A DNA stretch of 64,000 nucleotides. It comes from a bacterium (GTDB lineage Bacteria; UBA8248). The notes beneath the pieces were generated by a model. That model worked only from the letters and a program-made list of their open reading frames with translations. It ran no database searches and was not told where the DNA came from. Shown here in pieces: positions 852 through 22,777 of the stretch (positions within the stretch are counted from its first letter, which is position 1; each line of letters opens with the position of its first letter). The stretch is taken from positions 1,504,001-1,568,000 of the forward strand of contig OZ242260.1 in the NCBI GenBank assembly GCA_965207065.1, given 5' to 3'. Position numbers and translations under genes: made by a program.

Positions 852-1039
852 GTGCGACAGGCTGCTAGGTTAAATTATTCAGATAATCGGAATAATGCCG
901 TCGCCCGCTCGTAGCCATGGACGTCACGCTTACCGATATTGTCCTTATTCTCGCGCCACAACTTCACCCCTTTCAAGAGGGACATTGAGGCGCGTGCGCA
1001 GCACCTCTTGCGCCTGCAGTTCATTCTGTATTGTTCAGT

Positions 1040-1275
1040 TTCCCGCCGCTTCGTTACGGCAGTCGCATCATCAGCCGCTTCGTTCGCCAAGTGGAGATGC
1101 GGGTCGAAGCAGCGTTCTCTATGAGGCGTACTGGATCGCCCTAGAAGTCACCCTAGTTGTAGGAATTAGTGAAACTCGTGGCCGTGATGCGTGCACGCTT
1201 AGACAATGACCGCAACGCTTCGATGTCCCTGGTGCCAAGCGGGCGATCAATCCGTTTGTATTGGTATTCGCTCAC
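1040..1275 (-). pseudogene. remnant of conserved hypothetical protein (SEYQY..IDRPL type)
   Basis: Minus strand reads VSEYQYKRIDRPLGTRDIEALRSLSKRARITATSFTNSYN*GDF*GDP, with internal stops. Confidence 0.5.
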
Positions 1276-6481: not shown

Positions 6482-7399
6482 GTGCGCCGTGGAAAGGCGC
6501 CATTCCCTAGCGGGTGCGAATCCCGCCCGGCAACTGTCGCTCCAGCCGGTAGCAATCGGGGCGGGTGATGGAGGCAACGACATGGCCTGAAGCACTCCGA
6601 TGGAAAAGGGCCGCCACGGGCGGCTCAGCGACCATGCGGGCCGCAACGCGAGTGAACGCCGAGCAGGCCTCGAAAATGCATGATGCGAGTGCCGACCCGC
6701 CTATGCAACGGGGAAGGCTGTCACCGGCCGGGAAGCGAGCGACATGAGCACCGGCCGGGTCTCGCCGGGGTAGTGGCGGCGGCACGCATGGAAGATGGGA
6801 ATGGCAGCAACACGGGAAGCCCTGCCGGTGGAGCGCACACTCCAACCGGAACCCCGCGAGGGGCAGGCCGGGCCGGCAGGGTGGCGGATGGGCTCGTAGT
6901 ACCTGAGAGGCCGGGTAACGCCGGCGGAGGAAAGGAGCCCTGGTTCGGGAGCGATGCGGAAAGGGAGGAAGGGCATGACCACTGGCGAGAGCCTATCAGG
7001 GTCGGAAAAGGCTCGGAAACTCCAGACCGTGTTACATGCGAAAGCCAAGGAAGAACCCGGACGGCGCTTCCACGCGCTGATAGACAAGGTGTGGCGCGAA
7101 GACTTTCTGGCCGAAGCCTGGAGGCGGGTCCGCCGCAATCGCGGGGCCGCCGGGGTGGACGGAGAGACGTTCGCGGACATCGAGGCGTACGGCGTGGGAC
7201 GCTGGCTCGGGGAACTGGCGCGGGAACTGAAGGATGGGGTATACGCACCGAAGCCTGTGCGACAAGTGCTCATCCCGAAGAAACAGCCCGGCAAGTTCCG
7301 GCCTCTGGGCATCCCCTGCATAAGGGACCGGGTGGCGCAGACGTCGGCCCTGCTCGTGCTTGAGCCGATATTCGAAGCGGACCTGCAACCGGAGCAGTA
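6482..7399 (+). mobile_element. group II intron, 5' portion, truncated by IS256
   Basis: GTGCG start, structured 5' region, candidate EBS1 TATGC (~6702) complementary to exon end GCATA, followed by RT ORF; no DV/DVI after the interruption. Confidence 0.8.
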
Positions 7400-7400
7400 G
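6975..7400 (+). pseudogene. ltrA: group II intron reverse transcriptase/maturase, N-terminal fragment
   Basis: GAAGVDGET, PVRQVLIPK..GKFRPLGIPCIRDRVAQ..LEPIFEADL; ends at the IS256 IR, before YADD. Confidence 0.85.
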
Positions 7401-7429
7401 AGTTACTGTCAAATGTTGTGTATGGCCGT

Positions 7430-7692
7430 ATGTGGACGGCCCCGTAAATGCAAACATGTTGTTTGAACGATTCAGGGTCTGTGGTCAGGTGCAGTCGTAT
7501 GTCCGACCTCTTGGTGCGGCATATCTCTCACCGCGGGCCCGTATGGAGATGCGCGGATCGGGTCCGAATCGTCCTGGCGAGCTCAAGGGCTCTCGGCCAT
7601 ACCCCGGTTTACCCGACCCTGTCTCATTGACCATTTACCCTTACCCGTCCTCCGACCTGCTCACATTCCTGGATAATCCGTTTGTCTGCCGC
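7430..7692 (-). ncRNA. putative seek/bridge RNA region of IS1111 copy 1
   Basis: Homologous to 20160-20430; internal 9-mers at 7594-7602 and 7568-7576 match the two insertion junctions. Confidence 0.75.
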
Positions 7693-8460
7693 TCAGGCGA
7701 CCGGCGCCGGTTCCTGGTAGACTTCTTTCTTCGTCATCAGCGCCCATGCGATGCGCGCCATTCGATTCGCCAGCGCCACCGCGACCAGCATTCGTGGCTT
7801 GCGCGCCAGCATCCGGGCCAGCCATGAGCCCGCCGGCGCGCCGCGCCGGACCGCGCTGCGCACCACCGTCATAGCACCTATGTTCAAGAGCCGCCTGATG
7901 TCGCGCTGTCCCATCTTCGACACTTTGCCCAGTCGGGACTTGCCTCCGGTCGAGTGCTGTCTGGGCACGAGGCCGAGCCAGGCGGAGAAGTCCCGTCCGC
8001 GTTTGAAGCTCTCCAAAGGCGGCGCGAAGGCCAGTATCGCCGACGCGGTGATCGGACCGATTCCCGGGATGCTCATCAGACGCCTCGCCTCCGCATCCGC
8101 GTAAGCGCCCGCGTGGAGTTGCCTCTCCAACTCCCTGATCTTCTCGTTGAGTTCGGCAATTTGATCGAGAAGAACCCCGCCCAACTCGCGGACCACCGTC
8201 GGCAGCTCCGTAACCGGGTCTCCAAGAGCCGCCGCCAGGCGAGAGGTATTCACTAGTCCCTGCGGAGCGATGACCCCGAACTCCGCGAAGTGACCGCGCA
8301 ACGCATTGACAGTCTGCGTGCGCTGGCGAACCAGGAGATCGCGCGTGCGGAACATCATCCCCTGGGCCTGCTGCGTTTCGCTCTTCACCGCCACGAAGCG
8401 CATGGTCGGGCGCGAGGCGGCCTCGCAGATCGCCTCCGCGTCCGCCGCGTCGTTCTTCTG
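7693..8460 (-). pseudogene. IS110 transposase, C-terminal part
   Basis: QKNDAADAEAIC, SIPGIGPITA, AWLGLVPRQHSTGGK, VALANRMARIAW. Confidence 0.9.
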
Positions 8461-8504
8461 ACGCTTGACCAAAAGGGTCACACACTGCCCGTTATCATGA
8501 TGGG

Positions 8505-8945
8505 GTGAGGGTTTATTACCGCTACCATCCGCTGGCGGGCTGCCGCGTAACTTGCCTTGGGCGTCGAAAGGCGTATGGGCAGAGGATGTTGATCATCCGG
8601 CATCCGGACGGAACACAGATGCATGTCCCGGAGTGGATGACCAGGCCGGATGCGGCCCTGCTCGAGGTTCGCGACGTCCCGAGAATCTCCCTGCGGGCGC
8701 TTCGTGAATTGCGGAATCTCATCGATGCGTCTCTTCTTGTACCGGACCAGGCCCGGAGGGGAGGAGACGATGAACACCAGACGCCGAAATTCGAAACAGG
8801 GGGAACTGTTTCCCCCGGAACAACCGCCGCACCTGATAACGGACGAAAGACGCGAGGCGCTGATACCGCTCCTGTCGATGACCATCGCAGTGGCCATGGA
8901 AGCTCCGGGACCGGAGAGCCCGACGAGTCGGGGGGCCGGCCATGA
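8505..8945 (+). CDS. DUF5372-like accessory protein of recombinase element (ends uncertain)
   Basis: RVYYRYHPLAG...PDGTQMHVPEWMT motif. Confidence 0.6.
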   Translation: MRVYYRYHPLAGCRVTCLGRRKAYGQRMLIIRHPDGTQMHVPEWMTRPDAALLEVRDVPRISLRALRELRNLIDASLLVPDQARRGGDDEHQTPKFETGGTVSPGTTAAPDNGRKTRGADTAPVDDHRSGHGSSGTGEPDESGGRP

Positions 8946-8952
8946 GGGGTGA
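8770..8952 (+). CDS. small accessory protein of recombinase element (60 aa)
   Basis: GGAGGAG RBS; MNTRRRNSKQGELF...; overlaps recombinase start. Confidence 0.55.
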   Translation: MNTRRRNSKQGELFPPEQPPHLITDERREALIPLLSMTIAVAMEAPGPESPTSRGAGHEG

Positions 8953-11017
8953 GCAAACAAGGATCACCGCCGGCCATCTGGCGCGCGCGGCCTGTGTCTA
9001 CGTTCGACAGTCCTCACTCGGCCAGGTTCGCAACAACCTGGAAAGCCAGCGCCTTCAGTACGGATTGCAGGCCCGCGCGAAGGAGCTGGGCTGGCGGGAA
9101 GTGATGACGATCGACGAGGACCTCGGCCGTTCGGGAGGTGGCGGCGTCGAGAGGCCCGGCTTCCAGAAACTCCTGAGCGCGGTCTGCGAGAACAGGGTCG
9201 GCATCGTGTTGTCCGTCGACGCCTCCCGCCTGTCCCGAAACGGCCGTGAGTGGCATACTCTTCTCGAGTTCTGCGCCGTGGTCGGCTGCCTCCTGGGAGA
9301 CGGGCGCGGCATCTACGACCCCGGTCTGCCCGATGATCGCATGCTGCTCGGCATGAAGGGGAGCTTCAACGAAATGGAAAGCTCGCTCCTGCGCCAGCGC
9401 TCCCACGACGCCCGTCGCCAGAAGGCGGAGCGGGGCGAGTTGTTCCTGAACCTGCCGGCCGGATACGTGAAGGTCGGGCGCGACGCCATCGCGCTCGACC
9501 CCGACCAGCGGGTGCGCGACGCGGTACGGCACGTATTCCGCAAGTTCACCGAGCTGCGGAGCATTCGCCAGGTGTTCCTGTGGTTCCGGCAGGAAGGAGT
9601 CGAGCTTCCGTATCGCTCTCTCGACACCGGCGTTCATGGATGGCGGGTCGCCTGGAAGCTGCCGGTGTACAATACCGTCCACCAGATCCTGACCAACCCG
9701 ATCTACGCGGGCGCCTACGCCTACGGTCGCAGGAGGCGGCGGAGGGTGATCGAGGAGGGGCGCCAACGCATCGTGAACGAGGTCAGGCGCAACCCGGAGG
9801 AGTGGGCGATATTGATTCGCGACAACCACGAGGGCTATATCTCCTGGGAGGAATATGAACGCAATCGCGGCCTGATCGCGGCCAATGAGCCGAAAATCAA
9901 GGGAGCGGTGCGCGAGGGCGGCGCGTTGCTGACCGGCTTGTTGCGATGCGGTCATTGCACCCACAAACTCCAGGTCGTCTATTCGGGGAACAGCGGGGTG
10001 GGCCGCTACCTCTGCCAGGGCAGGCGGTCGCACACGGATGGTACAACCTGCATCTCCTTTGGTGCGGGCGACGTCGACGAGGCCGTCGCCGCCGCCGTGT
10101 TGCGAGCGGTAGAGCCGCTGGGAGTGGAAGCCGCGCTCGGTGCGCTCAAAGAGCGCGGAAAGGAAGCAGCCGAACGCGCCCGTCTGGCGGAGCTGGCGCT
10201 CGAGGAAGCCCGGTTCCAGGCGGAGCAGGCGCGGGCGCGGTTCGAGGCGGTCGATCCCCGCAACCGCAACGTCATCGGCAATCTCTCGCGGGCATGGGAG
10301 GAGCGCCTCGAGGTCGTGCGGGAGCGGGAGGCCCGGTTGGAGGCGGCGCGCTCACAACTCCAGCTTCAGGAGCCGACACCCTGCGAGCGAGCCGCGTATC
10401 TCGCCCTCGGCGCCGATCTGGAGCAGGCCTGGAACCATGAGAACGTGACGACCGCGATGCGCAAGCACATTCTGCGCGCGGTGCTCGTTGAGATCATCGT
10501 GACCGTCTCGGCCGAGCGGATCGATCTCGTCCTGCATTGGGAGGGCGGCGATCATACGGGACTCTCCGTACGCAGGAGAAAGAGCGGACTAACGCGTATC
10601 GCGGCGGACGCCGACACCGGGACCATGATCCGGGAACTTGCCCGCCTCATGCCGGACCGGGCCATCACCGCGTTCCTGAACCGGGCCGGGAAGCGGACCG
10701 GCAAGGGCAATGCCTGGACCGAGGCGCGCGTACGCGCCTGGCGTTCCCATCACGGCATAGCGGTCTATCGTGATGGGGAGCGACAAGAGCGCAACGAACT
10801 GACACAGACCGAAGCCGCGGCGAGGCTGAAAGTCAGCGCCAGAACAATGAACCGTCTGATCAAGCGCGGCGTTGTTCCGGCCCGCCAGGCCTGCAAGGGC
10901 GCGCCCTGGGTGATATCCGCAGATGCTCTCGAACTGCCGGATGTTGCCCGGGCGCTGAAAAAGGGAGTATACCCGCCGGCACCGGATGATGAACAGAAAA
11001 CCTTTTGTTTTCAATAA
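8942..11017 (+). CDS. large serine recombinase (resolvase, recombinase, Zn ribbon, C-terminal HTH), 691 aa
   Basis: YVRQS catalytic motif, DASRLSRN, ILTNPIYAG, LTGLLRCGHC. Confidence 0.92.
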   Translation: MRGEQTRITAGHLARAACVYVRQSSLGQVRNNLESQRLQYGLQARAKELGWREVMTIDEDLGRSGGGGVERPGFQKLLSAVCENRVGIVLSVDASRLSRNGREWHTLLEFCAVVGCLLGDGRGIYDPGLPDDRMLLGMKGSFNEMESSLLRQRSHDARRQKAERGELFLNLPAGYVKVGRDAIALDPDQRVRDAVRHVFRKFTELRSIRQVFLWFRQEGVELPYRSLDTGVHGWRVAWKLPVYNTVHQILTNPIYAGAYAYGRRRRRRVIEEGRQRIVNEVRRNPEEWAILIRDNHEGYISWEEYERNRGLIAANEPKIKGAVREGGALLTGLLRCGHCTHKLQVVYSGNSGVGRYLCQGRRSHTDGTTCISFGAGDVDEAVAAAVLRAVEPLGVEAALGALKERGKEAAERARLAELALEEARFQAEQARARFEAVDPRNRNVIGNLSRAWEERLEVVREREARLEAARSQLQLQEPTPCERAAYLALGADLEQAWNHENVTTAMRKHILRAVLVEIIVTVSAERIDLVLHWEGGDHTGLSVRRRKSGLTRIAADADTGTMIRELARLMPDRAITAFLNRAGKRTGKGNAWTEARVRAWRSHHGIAVYRDGERQERNELTQTEAAARLKVSARTMNRLIKRGVVPARQACKGAPWVISADALELPDVARALKKGVYPPAPDDEQKTFCFQ

Positions 11018-11040
11018 CGTAGAGGGGTGACTTAGTATGA

Positions 11041-11301
11041 CTGGCGTTTCACGTAAGGCTTCACGTAGACCGGTGGCATGAGCTTCACCTCGTGACCGAG
11101 CCTGCCGATCTCGCGGCCCCAGTAGTGCGCGCTCGCGCACGCCTCCATCGCAATCAGGCAGCGCGGCTGCGAAGCCAGAAAACCCGGTACATTCCCCCGG
11201 GTCAACTTCTTGCGAAACGCGACCGAACCGTCTATGCGCGCGCCATGGAGTTGAAAACCATGTTTCACCAAGTCGATACCGATGATGTGAACCTGTTCCA
11301 T
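11041..11301 (-). pseudogene. IS110 transposase, N-terminal part
   Basis: MEQVHIIGIDLVK, MEACASAHYW, YVKPYVKRQ; GGAGG RBS. Confidence 0.9.
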
Positions 11302-11381
11302 GGGGTCCTCCTTCCGGGCGGTATGAAGACGCCACCTCGCCACAGTGTGATACCTGCCAGGAGGGGTCGTCCACCCCATCG

Positions 11382-12004
11382 TCCTGAGTTCAGCGGCCTC
11401 CCTGCCGGTTTCTTTTTCGTTCACCCCATCGATGAACCTCACGTCGGTGATCACGTCGGCCAGATGACGCAAGCCGCTTAGCCGCCCCCATCGCTTCTCG
11501 GCGCTCATGGCGAGTTGATGCACCAGGCTCAGCGCCGTCTTCTCGCTCAGGCAGTTCCTCGTCTTCGCCGTTCGCAGCCGGATCGTGGCGAAGGTCGACT
11601 CGATGGGGTTCGTCGTCCGGATACTCCGCCAGTGCGCCGCCGGGAAGTCGTAGAAGGCGAACAACTCCTCGCGGTCCCGCGCCAGACACTCGGCGGCCTT
11701 GGGGTACTTCGCCTCCCAGGTGGCGAGAAAGCGTTCAAACGCCTTCTCCGCGCGCTCGCGGGCGTCGGCCCCCCACATCTCATACAGCATCGGCCTCGCT
11801 TCGCTCTGAACGCTTTTGGGCAGCTTGTCCAGAACGTTCGCCGTCTTGTGAACCCAGCAGCGCTGCGCCCGGGTCTCGGGATACACCTCGGCCAGCGCCG
11901 ACCAGAACCCCAGCCCCCCGTCGCCCACCGCCAGCTTCGCCGCCTTCACCCCCCGCTCCCGCAGGCTCAACAGAACCGCCTTCCAGCTCTCCTTCGATTC
12001 CCGG
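11382..12004 (-). pseudogene. IS256 transposase, C-terminal part
   Basis: RESKESW, LAVGDGGLGFW, QRCWVHKTAN, IRTTNPIESTF. Confidence 0.9.
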
Positions 12005-12024
12005 TTATGTAGAGCTCTACATAA

Positions 12025-12138
12025 CCGGGATTATGTGGAGTTCATGGTTATGTGGAGTTCATCCTGGAGTTCGTTGTTTTTGTGTGGTTTGCGGGTAGCG
12101 AACTCCACATAACTTTTGCATCGTCTCTCCTGTCCGCG
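12025..12138. repeat. RIT left terminal inverted repeat (114 bp)
   Basis: Reverse complement of 15393-15506 with one mismatch; internal TTATGTGGAGTTC repeats. Confidence 0.92.
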
Positions 12139-12191: not shown

Positions 12192-13202
12192 TCAGCACCT
12201 CGAGCGTTGTCCGTCTCCATTGCCTGCGAGCATGGCGAGCAGCTTGTCGGGCGCCCGGAAGCGACCCGGCCGGAGGTCCGGCAATCGGGCGCCGTCGAGC
12301 ATCTCGAGTTTTTCTGTGGGGTCGGCGTGCAGATAGACCTCGGTGCTCTGGATGGTCGCATGTCCGAGCCAGAGGGAGACCTTGCGCATGTCCCCGGTTG
12401 CCTGAAGCGTATGCATCGCGCAACTGTGTCTCAGGGTGTGGGGCGTCACGTGTTTGCCGGCGAGGCCCGGCTCCGCCCTGGCCGCGTTCTTCAGATGTTT
12501 TGCGAGTATGACGTTGAACCCCCAGCGGCTCAGCCTTCGCCCGAGCCGGTTGTGGAACAGTTCCGGGTCGCCTTCGGGGTCGCGCAGGCGGAGCCATGCC
12601 TCGATGCCCGAGCGCGTCTCTTTCCAGAGCGGAAGTCTCCGCTCGCGGCGTCCCTTGCCCATGATCCGGACGCCGGCCGGCGCCCGGCGGTCGTAGTCGT
12701 CGAGCTTCAGGGCGGTCAGTTCACTGACGCGCAGTCCGCAGGCGTACGTCAGATGGAGCATGGCCCGGTCACGTATTCCGTCCCTTCGCCCCGGGTCGGG
12801 CGCGTCGAGCAGGGCCTTGATCTCGGCGCGGGTGAGCCAGGCCACCAAGGCCTTGTCTGCCTTCTTCTTCGGGATCAGGGCGATCCGGACGGCTTGCTCC
12901 AGGGTGCCGGGCTCGCGCCATTCGACGAAGCGGAAGAACGCCTTGACGGCCGCGAGGCGCGCGTTGCGCGTACTGACGGCCGCGCCCTTGCGCTCGACGT
13001 GCTCCAGGAAGGCGAGCACCATATCCGCGTCGATCTGCTCGAGAGCAAGCTGCGAAGGTCTCACCCCGAGCCTGCGGGCGACGAAGCGCAGCAGCAGCGA
13101 CAGCGCTCGCGAGTAGGCGTCCACCGTGTTCGGGCCGGCGCCCTTCTCAAAGGGGAGATGCTCGGACACGAAGGCGCTTGCATGCCGGGCCAGCGGGGTC
13201 AT
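12192..13202 (-). CDS. ritC: RIT tyrosine recombinase C
   Basis: GLRVSEL, GKGRRER, TPHTLRHSCA, WLGH, TEVY. Confidence 0.88.
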   Translation of the reverse strand: MTPLARHASAFVSEHLPFEKGAGPNTVDAYSRALSLLLRFVARRLGVRPSQLALEQIDADMVLAFLEHVERKGAAVSTRNARLAAVKAFFRFVEWREPGTLEQAVRIALIPKKKADKALVAWLTRAEIKALLDAPDPGRRDGIRDRAMLHLTYACGLRVSELTALKLDDYDRRAPAGVRIMGKGRRERRLPLWKETRSGIEAWLRLRDPEGDPELFHNRLGRRLSRWGFNVILAKHLKNAARAEPGLAGKHVTPHTLRHSCAMHTLQATGDMRKVSLWLGHATIQSTEVYLHADPTEKLEMLDGARLPDLRPGRFRAPDKLLAMLAGNGDGQRSRC

Positions 13203-14116
13203 GACGCGTCCTCCCCATGGAAGGCTTCCGTCCGCCGGGCGACTTCTCCCAGCAGCGCCTCGGTGCTCTCGTGATACCACCAGGTATGGGCGACGGAGGC
13301 ATGGCCGAGCCAGGCGCTGAGAGCGACCATGTGCCGGGCGACCGCCCGCCGCCCGGAGCCGCAGGCTTCGAGCGAGCGCACCGCGAAGGTGTGGCGCAAG
13401 TCGTGGATACGCGGGTTGCGCCCGTCTTCCCGCGCACCTGCGAGACCTGTGCGCGAGCGCATCCGGCGGAACACGGCGCGGGCCGCGGAAGGACCCATGC
13501 GGCCGCGGCCGTCGGCCAGGAAGAGGGCTTCGGTATCCGCCGGCACGCGAACCCGCGCCCGGAGGTGACGCGCGAGTTGCGTTTCGACCGTGGGATGGAA
13601 GGGCAGCAGGCGCCGTCCTCCACGCTTCGCCGTCCTGACCATCAGTCCCTCCGGGGTGACGTCATCCACGTCGATCGCCAGCGCCTCGCAGCCCCGCAGT
13701 CCGGTGGCGGCGATCAGCCCGAACAGGATCCGGTACTGGCCCGGGACCGGGCACCTGATCGTGGCGCACTCATCGGCCACGGCCAGGAGCGCGGCGATCT
13801 CGGAAGCAGAGTAGATGTAGGGCTTGGGCCGCACCCGGTGCGCGCGGGGCAGGACGTCCGCCGGAGGCGCCTCGTGCCGGGGGTCCTCCACGGCCATCGC
13901 CAGGGCGAAGCGGCGCACGAGCAACACCAGTCTGCGCCGCTGCAGGGCCGATGAGGAACGGCGCGCCCATTCGAGGACGCTCTGCGTGTTGACGTGGCTA
14001 TCGCCGCGGGCCTGCGCGAAGGCGGCGTAGTTCGCGAGACGCCGGGCGTCCTTGCGGAAGCTGCGCCCGGCGGCGCGGATGGAGGCGACGTATCGCTCGA
14101 CGGCATCGACGATCAT
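13199..14116 (-). CDS. ritB: RIT tyrosine recombinase B
   Basis: PYIYS, ATGLRGCEA, PRIHDLRHTFAV, AWLGH..HTWWY. Confidence 0.88.
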   Translation of the reverse strand: MIVDAVERYVASIRAAGRSFRKDARRLANYAAFAQARGDSHVNTQSVLEWARRSSSALQRRRLVLLVRRFALAMAVEDPRHEAPPADVLPRAHRVRPKPYIYSASEIAALLAVADECATIRCPVPGQYRILFGLIAATGLRGCEALAIDVDDVTPEGLMVRTAKRGGRRLLPFHPTVETQLARHLRARVRVPADTEALFLADGRGRMGPSAARAVFRRMRSRTGLAGAREDGRNPRIHDLRHTFAVRSLEACGSGRRAVARHMVALSAWLGHASVAHTWWYHESTEALLGEVARRTEAFHGEDAS

Positions 14117-15392: not shown

Positions 15393-15506
15393 CGCGGACA
15401 GGAGAGACGATGCAAAAGTTATGTGGAGTTCGCTACCCGCAAACCACACAAAAACTACGAACTCCAGGATGAACTCCACATAACCATGAACTCCACATAA
15501 TCCCGG
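15393..15506. repeat. RIT right terminal inverted repeat
   Basis: Inverse of 12025-12138. Confidence 0.92.
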
Positions 15507-16132: not shown

Positions 16133-16322
16133 GGTGGCGCATCTCCTTGTGCTGAATGACCGGGCTTCTGACAACCCTATTTCAGCAGGATGCGCCGCCT
16201 TCTTCAATTCAGCCCATACACAAGTTCTGAGAGTAACTCCAGTATATACGATGATTTTTGCAAAAGGAAAAATTGGTGATTGGTCGTAATTGCATAAGGC
16301 ATATACTCACTTGACTAACCCA

Positions 16323-17291
16323 CTATCTATCAGGCCATATTTCAGCATCCTCGCCCGGTTCTTGATTTGGCCTGAAATCCAGCAGGTAGGTTTCGGGGTC
16401 GATTTTCGAGAACGTAACATCTGTCCGGCCATACTCGATGAGGTGATGCCTCGTCACATACACGCCAGAACCAACACGTAGACGCGCCCTCAAGTAAGCA
16501 CCGAGCAAACTGTTGTCCTGTGTAGTGTGCAATCCCTTTCCGGCATCTTGAGCGCGAACACATATGAAGCTGTCGCCATCATCCGTAAGAACCGTGAATT
16601 GCTCAAACCTGTCAGGGAAGAATCCACTACGCCCCACGCTTGCGGGAATGTTGATGTAGGCTTGGTTCGGGTTTCTCCCAGACCTTTGCCCCCAGTTAAT
16701 GCCCGATCTGGTAGGCGTCTCACCTTCTCTCGAAAGAAGAGTGAGGGTAACGCTTTCAAGTGGGCTTCCCGTCTCAAAACCCTTCCGGCTTTGCAGCAAG
16801 GTGATCTGAGTGTCGATATGGGGCTGAATGCAGTCCGATGCGTTCCTGAGAATGAGGTTGTGGAAGTCGTTTGCATCGCATGAATCGGCTGGGGACATGA
16901 CCTCTATTTGCGCCCTTCCGAATCCCGTCATAGTATAGTTGGCGGAGCCGCAGAAAGCCTTTATCGGCTCTCCTTTGGCATTCAACCACACATACGATTT
17001 AGCATGAACTGGATTGCCTCGAACCACGTATCGGCAAATGAAGTCCGTATCCCAGGACGGATGATCCATCATTTTGCAGAATGCGGAATGCTGGGCTTCC
17101 TCTATCCCGTGTTGTATCGTCATGCCGATTATGAGTTCTATCGAGATGTTGAGGTCTAGTTCCTTCAGGTGCTCCATATGCCTGTCGGCCATATTCGCGG
17201 TAGCGAATCCGCTGACAATACGCAGGCGCCCTCCGTTCACGTCATACGCGGGCGATAGCAGGACTTCACGGAAGAGGTCTTCGTGGATCAT
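16323..17291 (-). CDS. PLD-type restriction endonuclease (NgoFVII-like)
   Basis: IVSGFAT, HAKSY...GSANYT PLD motif, SGINWGQ..RNPNQAYI; coupled to the MTase. Confidence 0.8.
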   Translation of the reverse strand: MIHEDLFREVLLSPAYDVNGGRLRIVSGFATANMADRHMEHLKELDLNISIELIIGMTIQHGIEEAQHSAFCKMMDHPSWDTDFICRYVVRGNPVHAKSYVWLNAKGEPIKAFCGSANYTMTGFGRAQIEVMSPADSCDANDFHNLILRNASDCIQPHIDTQITLLQSRKGFETGSPLESVTLTLLSREGETPTRSGINWGQRSGRNPNQAYINIPASVGRSGFFPDRFEQFTVLTDDGDSFICVRAQDAGKGLHTTQDNSLLGAYLRARLRVGSGVYVTRHHLIEYGRTDVTFSKIDPETYLLDFRPNQEPGEDAEIWPDR

Positions 17292-18373
17292 ATTGTGAGT
17301 TCATAAGCAGGGACGTCATGCTTGACGAGTGAATTCAGGACGGCGCGATAAACGACCTCCGCGCCCTTCGGTGGAACGGCCATGCCGATTTGCTTTCGCA
17401 CGGATTCTTTCCCGCCCTCAAAGACAAAGCTGTCGGGAAATGTTTGGAGTCTCGCCCTTTCTCTATTCGTCAAGGCGCGATTTTCTTCCCAATGATATAG
17501 ATGCGTTCCACCGCCACCGGAACCAGTAACCGTATAGCTTGGCGCATCCGGCTTGAGTCTTCTGTAAATTTGGCTGATGGTTGCGCCGCTCTTGAGGTTC
17601 AATTTTAGATGCTTGGGCAAATCAGCCGTGAAGGCGTTCTCTCCCGGCTTGATATGTTTCAACCTCTCGACAACATTTCCAGACTGGTTTGTGCGCTCGT
17701 TGTTGGTCGCATCATCCGGTATGTCGCTCAATGCTTCTTTAGCCGTATTGAAATTATCCATGTGTGTGGGCGCAGGATGCTCGAAAGAATCAATGCCCAG
17801 GTCTTTGCGAAAACCGACCACGAACAATCTGTGGCGCGCTTGAGGCACTCCGTATTCCTCTAGGCGATAGGTGTGCGGGAAAATCGCATATCCGGCTTTT
17901 CGCAGGGAAGACAGGATGATGGCAAAGTCTTTATTATCACCGCTCGACTTGATGCCGCTCACATTCTCGGCTACGAAAAATGCAGGTTTCTTCGCCTTGA
18001 GCGCACGCACTCCCCAGATGTAAAGGCCACCATGCTGGCCAGATATACCCCGTCGCTCTCCTATTACGCTGAAATCATTGCATGGGAACCCGAAGGCCAG
18101 CCCGTCAATATCCGCCAGTTCCTTGAAGTCCAAGTCCTTCACATCCCCGCACATGACACCGCCTTCCGGCAACGGGATATTATTTTCGAGCGTCTTGCAA
18201 GCATCCGCGTCCCTGTCGTTTACCCACACGTGAACGAAACCATGCCCGCCCACCTTCGCGTTGTGCGCGCCCAGCGTCATGCCTCCTGCACCAGCAAATA
18301 ATTCACCTATCCGATAGGTCTTGTGATCCGGAGATGGAGCCATAGCGAGCGCAAGCTGATTGTCGAAGCTCAT
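17288..18373 (-). CDS. DNA (cytosine-5)-methyltransferase
   Basis: ELFAGAGG, GFPCNDFS, AENVSG, PQARHR, RERARLQTFPD, QIGMAVPP. Confidence 0.93.
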   Translation of the reverse strand: MSFDNQLALAMAPSPDHKTYRIGELFAGAGGMTLGAHNAKVGGHGFVHVWVNDRDADACKTLENNIPLPEGGVMCGDVKDLDFKELADIDGLAFGFPCNDFSVIGERRGISGQHGGLYIWGVRALKAKKPAFFVAENVSGIKSSGDNKDFAIILSSLRKAGYAIFPHTYRLEEYGVPQARHRLFVVGFRKDLGIDSFEHPAPTHMDNFNTAKEALSDIPDDATNNERTNQSGNVVERLKHIKPGENAFTADLPKHLKLNLKSGATISQIYRRLKPDAPSYTVTGSGGGGTHLYHWEENRALTNRERARLQTFPDSFVFEGGKESVRKQIGMAVPPKGAEVVYRAVLNSLVKHDVPAYELTI

Positions 18374-19296
18374 CCGGTAAGCTCCCGCCAAGAGAGTTTC
18401 CCGCAGGTGATGCGGCTGATGATGTTTTCACATCGGATGCCTGAGCTTCGCTCTTTCCTCATGTTGAATCGAGCGGAGTATTCGTCCACATAGCGATGCA
18501 AATGCTTCGCGCTCATCTTGTAATAGACGCCGATATAACCGCGCTTGAGCAAGCTCCAAAAGCTTTCCACGCCATTCGTATGCGCCATGCCCTTCACATA
18601 CTGGCCTACGCGGTGGTTCACCATGACATGATGATAGAGACGGCCTAGATGCCGATAGGAGAGAAACTCATCCGTTGAAATGACCGACCCGGATGCGACC
18701 GACTTGAGGACTTCCCTTGCTATGGTGCGCTTCTTGGTGTTCTCGACTGGACGGGCCACAATATCTCCGCCTCGTTGTAACATCGCCAGGACGGGTTTCT
18801 TCGTTTTTAGACTGCGCCCCTTGGTTCCTCCGGTGCGCTTGTGTTTATGCTTGTTGGCCTCTCGACCCCCGATATAACTTTCATCGACCTCAATCGTTCC
18901 CGAGAGCTTGGGAGCCTTTTCGGTTGCGCCAAAGGCTTTTCTGATTCTGTGTTCCATGAACCATGCCGTATTGTATGCAACGCCAAGCTCACGCTGCAAC
19001 TGCGTAGCGGGAATGCCTCTGCGATTCGAGGACATGAGCCATATCGCCACGATCCATTTTCGGAGAGGAACTGGAGAATCCTGAAATATCGTGCCGATTC
19101 TCACAGTGAATTGATCACGGCAATCAGCGCACTTATACCGCTTCCCATCGCTGAAAGCATAGACCTTGCCCGTGCTTCCACACTTAGGGCAATACATCCC
19201 ATGCCGCCACCTGATTTGCGCGATGTACTTGTGAGCCGCTTCCTCGTTCGGTATGTTTTCGTATAGCTGATTCAGGCTGTCAAAACTTATTTCCAT
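18370..19296 (-). CDS. IS1595-family transposase
   Basis: Zn ribbon CPKC..CADC; EVDESYIGG, STDE, HTNGVESFWSLLKRG. Confidence 0.92.
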   Translation of the reverse strand: MEISFDSLNQLYENIPNEEAAHKYIAQIRWRHGMYCPKCGSTGKVYAFSDGKRYKCADCRDQFTVRIGTIFQDSPVPLRKWIVAIWLMSSNRRGIPATQLQRELGVAYNTAWFMEHRIRKAFGATEKAPKLSGTIEVDESYIGGREANKHKHKRTGGTKGRSLKTKKPVLAMLQRGGDIVARPVENTKKRTIAREVLKSVASGSVISTDEFLSYRHLGRLYHHVMVNHRVGQYVKGMAHTNGVESFWSLLKRGYIGVYYKMSAKHLHRYVDEYSARFNMRKERSSGIRCENIISRITCGKLSWRELTG

Positions 19297-19544
19297 GACC
19301 TTCCCTCCCTATGATGATAACAATATACATCATTTAATTGGGTTAGTCAAGTGAGTATATGCCTTGCATAAAGGTACACTCTACGTTACGTCTGTTCGGT
19401 ATTTCTTTTTTGCTCCTTATTCCCTATGTCCAAATCTTCGATCCACACGGAACTAACTGCGCCGTCAATATTATTATGTTCAGCTTACCACGGAATGATC
19501 TCGCAGCTGACTAGATACTGAGATAATCACTATCATTGGCACCA

Positions 19545-20432
19545 GAAGGCTGCGGTGCCATCTGGCGGAGTTCGGGCTCATCGCTCCAAAAGGGGCCGGT
19601 TCATCTCACATGGTTGCTGTTGGCAGTGAAAGGTCTGGACTCGGGTCTGCCGGAGGCGGTGCACGAACTGGGCGGGGTTCTGCTCGCGTAGATTGCCAGC
19701 CTGAAGGAGAAGATACAGGAGTTGGAGGGGCAACTGCGCGCGAGCGCGCGCGAAGACGAGGAGGCGAGACACCTGATGAACATCCCGGGGGTCGGGTCGC
19801 TCTGCGCGTCGGTGATACAGGCCTTCGCGCCGCCGATGGAAAGCTTCCGACACGGGAGGGATTTCTCCGCCTAGATCGGCCTCGTGCCCCGACAACACTC
19901 CACGGGCGGCAAAACGCGGGTGGGCAGAATATCAAAGATGGGCCAGCGCGACATCAGGCGGCTTTTGATCATAGGGGCCATGGCGGTAGTGGGTTGGGCG
20001 GTCCGGCGCGGCGCGCCGGCGGGTTCATGGTTGGCCCGGATGTTGGCGCGCAAACCTCTTATGCTGGTCGCGGTGGCGCTGGCGAATCGAATGGCGCGCA
20101 TCGCTTGGGTGTTGATGACGAACAGGGAATTCCACAAGGAGCCTGTGCCGGTCATCTGAGCGGCAGGCGAGTGAATATAGCCGGGAGGAATGTAAGCAGG
20201 TCGGAGGACGGGTAAGGGAAAATGGTCGACGAGACGGGATCGGGAAAACCAGGGTACATTCGAGAGTTAACAAGCTCGCGAGGCCGATTCGGACCCGGTC
20301 CGCGCATCTCCATACGGGCCCGCGGTAAGAGTTAAACGCCGCAAACGAGAGGTCGGACATACGACTGCACCTGACCACGGACCCTGAATCGTTGAAATAA
20401 CATGCTTGTATTCACGGGGTCGTCCACATACG
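19545..20432 (+). mobile_element. second IS110/IS1111 copy, 5'-truncated, transposase pseudogene
   Basis: Homologous to 7430-8300; internal TAG stops; PRQHSTGGK; right end GGGGTCGTCCACATACG. Confidence 0.85.
20160..20430 (+). ncRNA. putative seek/bridge RNA region of IS1111 copy 2
   Basis: Same scaffold as copy 1; GTACATTCG (20254-20262) is the reverse complement of flank CGAATGTAC (20431-20439). Confidence 0.72.
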
Positions 20433-20508
20433 AATGTACGACAGAGCCTGACCGTATTGCGACGAACCCTCCGAAGAAAACGCTTGCATTCTAGTGGGCG
20501 TCCATGTT
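20431..20508 (+). mobile_element. right-end remnant of a third IS1111-type element
   Basis: TACGACAGAGCCTGACC...CTTGCATTCTAGTGGGCGTCCATGT parallels TACGACTGCACCTGACC...TTGCATTTACGGGGCCGTCCACAT of copy 1. Confidence 0.55.
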
Positions 20509-20618
20509 CATAAATATACGATTGGGTGAACGCGACCTCCCATCGACAGCGACTCGTTTGCTTTTGTTGCCAAGTCAGCGCATGCCACTTAACGAGATGT
20601 ATCAGTGGGAGTGAGGAA

Positions 20619-22777
20619 ATGAACATCGCAGAACTCAAACAAATTAGCCGGACTGGACCGGTTCTCGACATAACTAATTACACAGATCATTTCATAAGGT
20701 CACTTGTTAAGTTGATCCGAAGCACGAAACGTCACGGCGTTATGTTTGAGACGGAATCGTCGACTTCCGCAGCCGCATGGCTACTGTGTATAGCGGATGC
20801 CAATGCTTTCGGAACCCTCAGCACCGACGCTCAGTTGGAATGTACATTTCCCGAGATGGCTCCAAACCAACTCCTAGGATTTCGGGGGCAGAAGGCCAAA
20901 TATGAGAGTATTGTGACTAGACTGCATCGATTATTGCGCCAGGCTAAGCCCTGGAGAGGAGGATGCCATGACCTGAAACCTCTCGTAGCGACCCAGAGGG
21001 TTCGACTCCCGCCCGGCAAAGGCGAAGCCGGCCAGCCGGAAGCGAGTCTTGCATGGCGTGCGGCAACGCCCGTCGTGAAGCGTAGACAGCAGGTGATGAA
21101 GCGGCGGGGTAAGCCTCGAAATCGGTCAATCGACGACGCCTTCATTGTTAATCGTGTGGGGGCAGCACCGGGAGCGCCGCCAATGGCGAGGCGCAACGGG
21201 TCGTCCGGGGTCGTGGGCCGGCGCAAAGTCACGGGACGGGTCGCCAGGGAACCTGGGAGATCCTGCTCTTGCCCGTGGGCAAGAACGCTGGAAAGGGGAC
21301 GGCCAGCGTGAACAATCCAGACCCCGGCCCGTCGCCGGACCTGCACGGCGGCGGGAGCGCCCCAGGGCGGACACGAACCCGGCAGGCGCCCGCGGAACCG
21401 GCTGGCCAAAACAATAAGCCGAAGGACATGCGAGGGTAGGAAGTCGTAGCGCCCTGATAGTACCGCTGAAGGCGGGGAACCGTGGCCATCGGGACCCGCT
21501 GGAGGGAAGCGGGGCGTCATCTGTACAGAACCACTGATGGGAAACGATGGAGGAAACTCTGAGTTCCACCAACACGTACACGAAACAGCAGTGGATAGCC
21601 GAACAGGCGAGGAATGCCTCGACCTGCGGACCAAGGGTGACAACCCCTTGAGCGAACCTGTCAGGTGAGGAACCGAGTGCGTCAATCGCGCACGCTCGGG
21701 TCTGCGGGGGGAGGGGCGCAGCAATGCCCCCTCCTACCCGGCCCTCAAGAAAAGCGTGTCGAGGCAGACAAAGCTTTCAGTTGGTTTCGTGCTGCAATTT
21801 CAGCTTGGCACAATACAAACTTCCGCTACCTTAATGACATGTTCGACAATGGTGGGGTTGAGCATGAGTCCGCCATGGGTGTCGCGCAACATTACCAACT
21901 CCCCACTTTTTTAGTGGACTGGACATGGAATCCTTTCGTGGCCTTGGCGTTCGCCATGTCCGATCTAAGGGATGGTGAAGAGGGCGTGGTCTTTCTTCGA
22001 GATTTTGGCGACGGAACTAACCCAACATCCGACTATAACGTTCTTTTGCCGCCGTCGTTTGCCAAGAGAGCTTGGCGTCAAAGGGCGTTCTTTTCCTGGC
22101 ATCCAGTTGCTCCTGAGGATTGGGACAATCCGGTCGTGCAGAGAATTGCAGGGGATATTCCGCGGCATAATGCAATGCCCAACAATTATTATCACATCAA
22201 ATTTCGTGCGACTGAGAGTGACATAAAATGGGCGAAACAGAGTTATGCTGGATTGATGAAGGAGGATCTGCCCGGCTTGGGTTGCTTGGCGAAATGGTGT
22301 TTAGAAGCCGCACGAAAGGGCGCGAATGGGCCTTTACATCCCAATGTTCTCTCGTTGGATGATTTCCAGAAATGGTGTAATCGTTGCAACTTGAATTTAC
22401 CTGAGTTTGTGGTGACGAATCGAGAAGTGGAAGTAACAGAGAACTTTGCTCTCATGATGGATTATATAGATGAAATGAGCGTTAGGCGTAATCCAAGTAA
22501 TGGCACAATCGGTTACTTCATTCCGAGTGTGTTAACGGCCTGTGTGGGAATGCCATGGAACAGTTGTATGAAGTATCCCGCCCGCGGACTTAAGAACCTG
22601 AATGATCCAAGAGCAGATGTTTTCTTTGACGATGATGGGCAACCCTGTATGGATCACTGGCATAAAAAGCTGAGCTATATGAAGTCGTTGGTTGACATAA
22701 GACGTATACAGAACGACGATTTTTTTCGATCAATGTTTGTAGAACGCCCGCGGGGAAAGAGGCAACAAATCGGTTAA
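20619..22777 (+). CDS. FRG-domain protein split by a group II intron (exons 20619-20933 and 21743-22777; 449 aa spliced)
   Basis: FRGQ in exon 1; AQHYQLPTFLVDWTWNPFVALAFA and QRAFF in exon 2; exons join in frame. Confidence 0.8.
20934..21742 (+). mobile_element. ORF-less group II intron (809 nt)
   Basis: TTGCG start; DV GAGGAACCGAGTGCG..CGCACGCTCGGGTCTG; DVI ending CTACCCGGC; EBS1 TAATCG (21149-21154) pairs with CGATTA (20928-20933); only a short RT stub remains. Confidence 0.85.

Follow-up and report, generated by a model that had tools for sequence, protein, structure and literature searches.

Transposable elements directed by bridge or seek RNAs are known to be reprogrammable and to aim at repeated sequences. 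IS1111 members reportedly described by Partridge and Hall in 2003 (IS4321/IS5075) and by Post and Hall in 2009 (the IS1111-attC group) are said to be aimed at Tn21-family terminal repeats and at integron attC sites. Those targets are protein-recognised repeats of an unrelated element, whereas the insertion described here lies in the guide-encoding DNA of a close relative, with an aim that tracks the donor-guide variant of that relative. For ISEc11, ISKpn4, ISPa11 and ISPst6, the consulted parts of Siddiquee et al. 2024 (PMC11187229) describe the same organization as found here, a DEDD/Transposase_20 recombinase, a 3′ non-coding region, repeats with extensions and insertion without duplication. 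By the IS1111 rule given in that text, the subterminal inverted repeats are 11-13 bp long with a 7-bp left and a 3-bp right extension, and in the seekRNA the top-strand complement lies 5′ of the bottom-strand match, again as here (PMC11187229). Natural reprogramming between relatives is documented in the same pages for ISEc11 versus ISXne4, but the targets named there for the ISEc11 group are chromosomal or cassette sites rather than the RNA gene of a relative (PMC11187229). IS621 (Durrant et al. 2024, PMC11208160) likewise combines target and donor loops that share a core but, in the sections consulted, its RNA is located 5′ of the gene, its core is CT and its target is a REP element, whereas here the RNA is 3′ of the gene and the core is CG. 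The modular circles of ISPpu9/ssr9 (PMC12288879) also come from an IS110-family element with a 3′ RNA module that is a separable unit, but the part of that article consulted presents them as alternative excision products of one element, not as insertion into the RNA gene of another. We found no description of an IS110 or IS1111 insertion into another element's RNA gene in the portions of the literature that were searched, and as far as that literature extends, what is new here is an aim at a relative's guide-encoding DNA that tracks the donor-guide variant.

Within the window (the whole 64,000-nucleotide stretch of DNA that was analysed), copy 2, at positions 19566-20430 of the plus strand, is a decayed IS1111-type element that contains a C-terminal fragment of a transposase gene followed by a 3′ bridge/seek-RNA gene. 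The transposase pseudogene (19566-20159) retains only the C-terminal 197 codons, with two in-frame TAG stop codons. Read with TAG as X, this fragment matches Pfam Transposase_20 (PF02371; E 9.7e-19) and is 66% identical in amino-acid sequence to the intact inner recombinase of the metagenome contig L145 discussed below. The N-terminal DEDD domain has been deleted, and copy 2 therefore keeps Transposase_20 as the only one of the two IS1111-group domains, DEDD/RuvC-like PF01548 and PF02371, that are both present in a second element in the window, copy 1, and in the inner and outer elements of L145. The left junction, as the sequence-only reading had noted, is missing, and transposase homology detected by blastn begins near 19565. 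From the stop codon (20157-20159) there are 271 nt to the right end at 20430, a region conserved in 24 elements that constitutes the RNA gene (20160-20430; alignments A1 and A2 and a consensus fold), with a structural core at ~20191-20410. The right subterminal inverted repeat GGGGTCGTCCAC and its 3-bp extension, ATA (20416-20430), complement the left-end repeat GTGGACGACCCC of full-length copies, and the element terminates with ...GTCCACATA. Three further full-length copies in this genome, A, B and C, share the 3′ non-coding region with copy 2, and these and copy 1 start with CG-ATGGG-GTGGACGACCCC, so that the inverted repeat is a 12-bp subterminal sequence with a 7-bp left and a 3-bp right extension. 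The long 3′ non-coding region, these extensions and the guide order are features of the IS1111 group, and the covariation of the donor guide with the element's own end and a conserved fold that places the guides in loops are features of bridge RNAs. A cmscan of the window with the Rfam covariance models returned two group II intron matches only, and none at 20160-20430 or at the corresponding region of copy 1 (7427-7692).

Aligned with copy 1 (7692-7427, minus strand), the copy 2 region 20160-20430 has a mean column identity of 84%, and the two share a common scaffold but differ sharply in two slots, as first noticed by inspection. The slots of copy 1 are GTATGGCCG and CAGGACGAT, the former complementary to its flank CGGCCATAC. 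In copy 2, the right target guide GTACATTCG (20254-20262) complements the top strand of the target and is reverse-complementary without a mismatch (9/9 positions) to the immediately adjacent flank CGAATGTAC (20431-20439). It is followed by the left target guide slot GAGGCCGAT (20280-20288), which matches the left half-site and consists of GAGGCCG and then AT, the first two bases of the left end. GAGGCCG also precedes the insertion point in uninterrupted copies of the host family described below and at the intact junctions of two further nested elements (in G005 and L145). The guide-target covariation that had been proposed within the window extends beyond it, with the right flank matched 9/9 by the slot in all five RNA-bearing copies of this genome and complementarity of at least 8/9 in 18 of the 36 unique copies drawn from this genome and from relatives, compared with only 3.6% when slots were paired with the flanks of other copies. 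Slot 2 equals the left flank wherever a left end is present (CCCGCCG in copy A, GGGCCG in copies B and C, and CAGGACG at window position 11381 in copy 1). Taken together, the slots of copy 2 predict the target GAGGC-CG-AATGTAC, the left half being a prediction for copy 2 itself as its left junction is deleted. The left half-site is generic for the family, with 19 of 27 left flanks ending in GGNCG, and hence only the right guide discriminates between targets.

The DNA into which copy 2 is inserted looked, on sequence alone, like an IS1111-type right end, and is a genuine one. From the alignments, positions 20431-20508 (plus strand) are assigned to a third, sister IS family, here designated T and distinct from the family of copies 1 and 2, and represent the 3′ tail of a T RNA gene. 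The donor guide of this tail is CGAATGTACGAC, its right end, GTCCATGTT, has decayed, and strands such as GCTTGCA (20482-20488) form the 3′ sides of the closing helices of the host RNA. It is 77-94% identical to the last ~75 nt of the T tails in the related genomes G013, G004, G008, G014, G002 and G011 (E 1e-17 to 1e-26), with the best match in G013 (91% over 77 nt, E 5e-24). When 41 related genomes were searched with 20160-20520, many elements from the same genus matched query positions 1 to ~210 and then, directly, positions 272-346. The elements that skip to 272-346 are uninterrupted members of T with an RNA 5′ part that resembles that of copy 2. At the homologous columns, the uninterrupted T copies of G002, G004, G008, G013 and G014 read GAGAGGCCGAATGTACGAC, the predicted target, within ...CGCCGCAAnnGAGAGGCCGAATGTACGACTGAGCC..., and so contain GAGGC-CG-AATGTAC verbatim. 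This 14-mer is present exactly, and always at the same offset, in 9 of 57 RNA copies. An exact search of the 41 genomes, undertaken for the copy 2 14-mer only, located 11 occurrences, all in T-RNA sequence, 10 of them in T RNA genes and the eleventh, at G000:602400 in this genome, in a ~38-nt relic judged by eye to be T RNA. That relic (genome positions 602380-602435) is a piece of a T-family RNA gene in which the copy 2 target is intact and unoccupied. Elsewhere in the same genome (2307378-2307492) a copy-2-like RNA survives as a 115-nt relic, in which the left guide is that of copy 2 and the right guide is GCGCATTCG. The predicted target of this relic, GAGGCCGAATGCGC, is absent from the 57 RNA copies (0/57). 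The sequence-only reading had placed the copy 2 target in the RNA region of an IS1111 relative, and this stands, with the addition that the site is the donor-guide segment of a sister family. Its alignment of the target with a motif in copies 1 and 2 does not, as that motif matches at only 10 of 14 positions and the host is T, and copy 2 therefore does not aim at its own family.

The targeted segment is identified by its relationship to the end of the element that encodes it. In alignment A2, the six bases that follow GAGG(C/T)CG(G/A/T) are the same element's right-end hexamer in 21 of 24 elements and differ from it by one base in the other three, and there are five such coupled hexamer types (ACATAC, ATGTAC, ATATAC, ATACAC and ATGCAC). 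This identity establishes the targeted segment as the left donor guide. The T segment GAATGTACG thus mirrors T's own right end, CCATGTACG, just as the left donor-guide region of copy 2, GAGGTCGGACATACGAC (20349-20365), mirrors CCACATACG at its own right end. The motif GAGGTCGGACATACGAC is present twice in the window, at 7494-7510 (minus strand) and 20349-20365 (plus strand), with ~0.11 occurrences expected by chance. The presumed right donor guide of copy 2, CTCCATACG (20308-20316), is recognized from sequence and would pair with the left end CG-ATGGGG with one base bulged. This segment is invariant, or nearly so, in A2 and is hence beyond the reach of covariation. The consensus fold has 36 pairs, with 96.9% of positions paired, versus 26-46% when the partners are slid, and 17 cells changed on both sides versus 6.9 in shuffles. 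Double changes occur in only three of the pairs, no better than in shuffles, and support for the fold is therefore mainly from conservation, with modest covariation. Both target slots are located in an internal loop and the donor guide is on the 3′ side of a multiloop. Donor nucleotides in a multiloop have also been noted for IS1111 orthologues, in the consulted part of Durrant et al. 2024 (PMC11208160). Insertion took place between the host hairpin and the donor guide, and consequently the closing helices of the host, with 3′ strands at 20482-20488 and nearby, have been cut from their 5′ partners.

Nested elements with the same organization are present elsewhere in the group. In G005 (locus L013), both junctions are precise. 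The outer RNA reads ...GAAAGGCCG and is followed directly by the inner left end, ATGGGGTGGACG, so that the left flank of the inner element ends with AAAGGCCG and upstream there is a transposase remnant and an RNA 5′ part from another element, as had been predicted for intact copies. The inner element has the guides GTGTATCCG and CGAGGCCGAT and the right end GTCCACATA, after which the outer tail resumes with CGGATACACGAATG... (CGGATACACGAATGCGCC...). The right guide has been retuned to the donor-guide variant of its own host. The inner transposase gene is frameshifted, with PF01548 and PF02371 recognized on its two pieces. The metagenome contig L145, identical to L155 over 4 kb, has a complete outer element and an inner element that is 85% identical to it. 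Here, the outer RNA reads ...AAGAGGCCG followed by the inner element, with guides GTATGTCCG and GCGAGGCCGAT and the right end GTCCATAGA, after which the outer tail continues with CGGACATACGACAG.... The guide of the outer element agrees with the flank of that element. Of the two recombinases, the inner one is intact (340 aa; PF01548 and PF02371) and the outer one has both domains and a C-terminal frameshift. The three nested elements, in the window, G005 and L145, therefore all differ in their right guides, each of which fits the variant of its own host exactly. In G019 (L016), an element with a GAGGCCG-type scaffold and guides GTATGTCCG and CGAGGTCGAT is positioned after ...AAGAGGTCG in a copy-1-like RNA, and its predicted target, GAGGTCGGACATAC, is the motif seen in copies 1 and 2, a 14-mer present five times in this genome, all within its five RNA genes. 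The right junction is, however, one G short relative to the guide and the tail is chimeric. With this imperfect junction and a downstream flank common to the G005 locus, G019 provides a partial, non-independent case of reciprocal aim. L013 and L016 have the same downstream genomic flank and outer tail but different upstream RNA 5′ parts and inner RNA modules, and the 3′ parts of their inner transposases are close relatives, a comparison which suggests that RNA modules may be swapped between elements.

In all four nested elements (copy 2, G005, G019 and L145), the corresponding segment of the element itself has 3-4 mismatches to the 14-mer target, and these elements thus do not aim at themselves. 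In a tree of the transposase 3′ part (520 nt, 40 copies), copy 2 falls with the copy-1 clade, the inner elements of G005 and G019 group together and L145 is far away, a hint that the habit of aiming at relatives may have arisen more than once. Nesting is rare, documented in 3 of 51 phylum genomes and in 3 of 47 parsed RNA copies, with the left-junction pattern present in two of the 51 genomes (G005 and G019) and the right-junction pattern in two (G000 and G005), numbers that are to be read with the possibility that short-read assemblies hide more cases. Most nested elements are dead. A genome scan for the left-guide context TCGCGAGGCCGATYCGGAC returned 71 loci, 70 without a blastn match to the RNA and one, L069, an IS RNA with the structure of the G005 locus. 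A metagenome scan for the left-junction pattern returned 25 loci, of which two, L145 and L155 with the same sequence, are nested and the other 23 have, as judged by eye, no upstream IS RNA.

We consider it probable, at roughly 0.8, that copy 2 is the relic of an IS1111-group element that was guided by its bridge/seek RNA into the donor-guide DNA of a T element, and that this aim recurs within the group. RNA-guided insertion into the RNA gene of a relative is well supported. An incidental insertion, at a near-cognate or off-target site, would require only that the guides are tuned to a different repeat, for instance a REP-like palindrome, that T DNA happens to resemble, with no dedicated aim. 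The generic left half-site is as expected on that account, as are the small number and mostly dead state of the nested copies, and sister elements in G011 do insert at AGGTCG-GACATATAT palindromes that match the donor-guide segment of the copy 1 family, AGGTCGGACATA, over its first 12 bases. Off-target and half-match insertions of IS621 are also documented in the part of a preprint that was consulted (bioRxiv 10.64898/2026.08.31.748434). At the present locus, however, the full target loop is matched, over 7 left and 9 right bases, rather than a half-match to the donor arms of the element, all 11 exact 14-mers in the 41 genomes are in T-RNA sequence with none in another repeat, and three independent nested elements have different right guides that are each exact for their own host. 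Incidental insertion is, on this evidence, an unlikely explanation. Less likely again is that the junction resulted from a secondary rearrangement between IS copies, by homeologous recombination or recombinase action on donor-like half-sites, or from mis-assembly of repeats. Rearrangements of this kind do take place at such sites and make some of the loci harder to read. A tail segment is tandemly duplicated in G011 (L015) exactly at the donor-guide/right-end identity, the G019 tail is chimeric with a base missing, one right end abuts another in G006 (L010) and in G013 (L018), and the G005 and G019 assemblies are fragmented. The join in the window is, nevertheless, exactly at the right end and the next nine bases complement the element's own guide, an outcome that recombination at microhomology would not give. 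Both ends are precise in G005 and in L145, L145 and L155 are two contigs with an identical sequence, and G000 is a single 4.48-Mb contig. That the guide-flank complementarity and the likeness of the flank to an IS tail are both due to chance is hardly credible. The shortness of the motifs is the sole point for this, and is countered by the low frequency at which mismatched slots and flanks reach 8/9, by the E values of the matches to T tails and by the presence in the aligned T copies of GAGGCCG, a left half that was predicted independently.

The rearrangements themselves are of interest. In L015 of G011 (2380-2540), ATATACG is common to the donor guide GGATATACG and the right end CCATATACG, and exactly at this identity the 74-nt tail that separates them has been duplicated in tandem. 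Recombination of a right end with donor-guide DNA, used as a donor-like half-site, would give such a product, and this may be compared with the half-match recombination described in the consulted portion of the same preprint (bioRxiv 10.64898/2026.08.31.748434). In L010 of G006 (~1735-1760) and L018 of G013 (~1030-1060, minus strand), the final bases of one right end (TCCACATA or TCCATACA) are directly joined to a right end of T type, GCGTCCATGTACG, from a different element, which suggests that insertion or recombination at a CG in the subterminal repeat of a relative may provide a second kind of IS-in-IS site.

For RNA-guided insertion of copy 2, the proposed sequence of events begins with the target loop, the first strand of which, GTACATTCG, would pair with the top strand to the right of the CG core, and the second strand, GAGGCCG, would be identical to the top strand to the left of this core, the two together specifying GAGGC-CG-AATGTAC. 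The T donor-guide segment would have to mirror the T right end, and so would be conserved in every active T copy. Insertion, without duplication, would then have split the host RNA gene between its hairpin and donor guide, and so parted the host target loop from the donor guide and from the closing-helix 3′ strands. The 5′ parts of both the host and copy 2 were presumably lost in a later deletion, and both relics would have decayed. Where the aim recurs, the left guide would remain GAGG(C/T)CG with the right guide retuned to the donor-guide variant of the host. By analogy with ISEc11, ISKpn4 and IS621, the RNA would be made, would bind the recombinase and would direct recombination, and the same analogy predicts that the host element is disabled in cis. 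The sequence-only reading had termed this IS-on-IS parasitism of the donor-recognition part of a relative's non-coding RNA. Insertion into the RNA gene of a relative is borne out, with the correction that the target is the DNA that encodes the donor guide, not the RNA, and parasitism, in the sense of an adaptive strategy, is an inference. A half-match to the donor arms was separately considered as the cause of the copy 2 insertion and rejected, the halves of the target being unlike the element's own ends, CCACATA-CG-ATGGGG.

In the window and in G005, the aim is from elements of the GAGGTCG type towards RNA genes of the GAGGCCG type, and the reverse holds in G019. It is a tentative possibility, and one we would not favour at present, that the IS1111-type elements of this group form a community of mutually aiming lineages, in which the five coupled donor-guide/right-end variants are the trace of an escape-and-pursuit race that drives the diversification of ends and guides. 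An aggressor would keep the GAGG(C/T)CG left guide and retune the right guide to the donor guide of its victim, and the victim could change its donor guide only together with its own right end. If general, the aim documented here would be a natural example of RNA-guided competition between transposons, could explain the joint diversification of donor guides and element ends, and would mark a site that every active victim must keep. It would also warn engineers that recombination may act on the very DNA that encodes a donor guide, a possibility to which the duplicated tail in G011 points.

Copy 1 (7427-11381, minus strand) is interrupted, not truncated. Its 3′ part (7427-8485) has the C-terminal 262 codons of the transposase (PF02371 and PF01548), the RNA gene and the right end, and its 5′ part (11042-11381) has the left end, ATGGGGTGGACG, at 11379, with a left flank, ...CTCAGGACG, that matches the left guide, CCAGGACGAT. 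The two are separated by a ~2.56-kb insert (8486-11041) in which the only long ORF (8942-11017, plus strand) encodes a large serine recombinase with Resolvase, Recombinase, Zn_ribbon_recom and HTH_17 domains, and the insert looks like a minimal, recombinase-only mobile unit within a transposase gene. The target of copy 1, CAGGA-CG-GCCATAC, is located just 3′ of an Rfam match to group II intron domains D1-D4 (6508-6651), and sits within an ORF with a putative reverse transcriptase-like motif. The flanking ORFs (6954-7400 and 11515-12012) matched no Pfam family, and the assignment of copy 1 to a group II intron context is a putative one, made from the Rfam match and this motif. In G004, G006, G008 and G022 (L113, L114, L115 and L120), another IS lineage with the right guide GGACCAGATTTT is positioned beside the copy 1 target motif in the opposite orientation, so that a single repeated element is the target of two lineages at points close to each other. 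Among the four runs, of 17, that were compared with the window, a 253-nt Logan contig in the RNA libraries X2 and X3, which look like one data set, covers window positions 7400-7641 of copy 1 with one mismatch. Such evidence consists of contigs, without transcript starts or ends, and with DNA carry-over possible it is at most a weak hint that copy 1 is transcribed.

The whole window is a graveyard of mobile elements. Close to copy 2, 27-bp perfect inverted repeats (16296-16322 and 19339-19365) enclose a transposon, with a single copy in the genome, that carries a restriction-modification system. It encodes, all on the minus strand, an IS1595-type transposase (18370-19296), an NgoFVII-type restriction enzyme (16323-17291) and a C-5 cytosine methylase (17288-18391). 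Downstream of copy 2, an Rfam group II intron (D1-D4-6) is matched at 21003-21220, within a region that extends from 21003 to 21745. A second copy of this sequence (G000 ~2260050-2260464) continues to ...CCTCCTACCCGGCC and, 14 nt further on, there is the left end of an IS1111-type element, D (2260464), the RNA gene of which is cut off after ~45 nt. Between the arms of a 114-nt inverted repeat (12025-12138 and 15393-15506, 99% complementary) there are ~3.2 kb with an ORF for a tyrosine integrase (12192-13280, minus strand; Phage_integrase).
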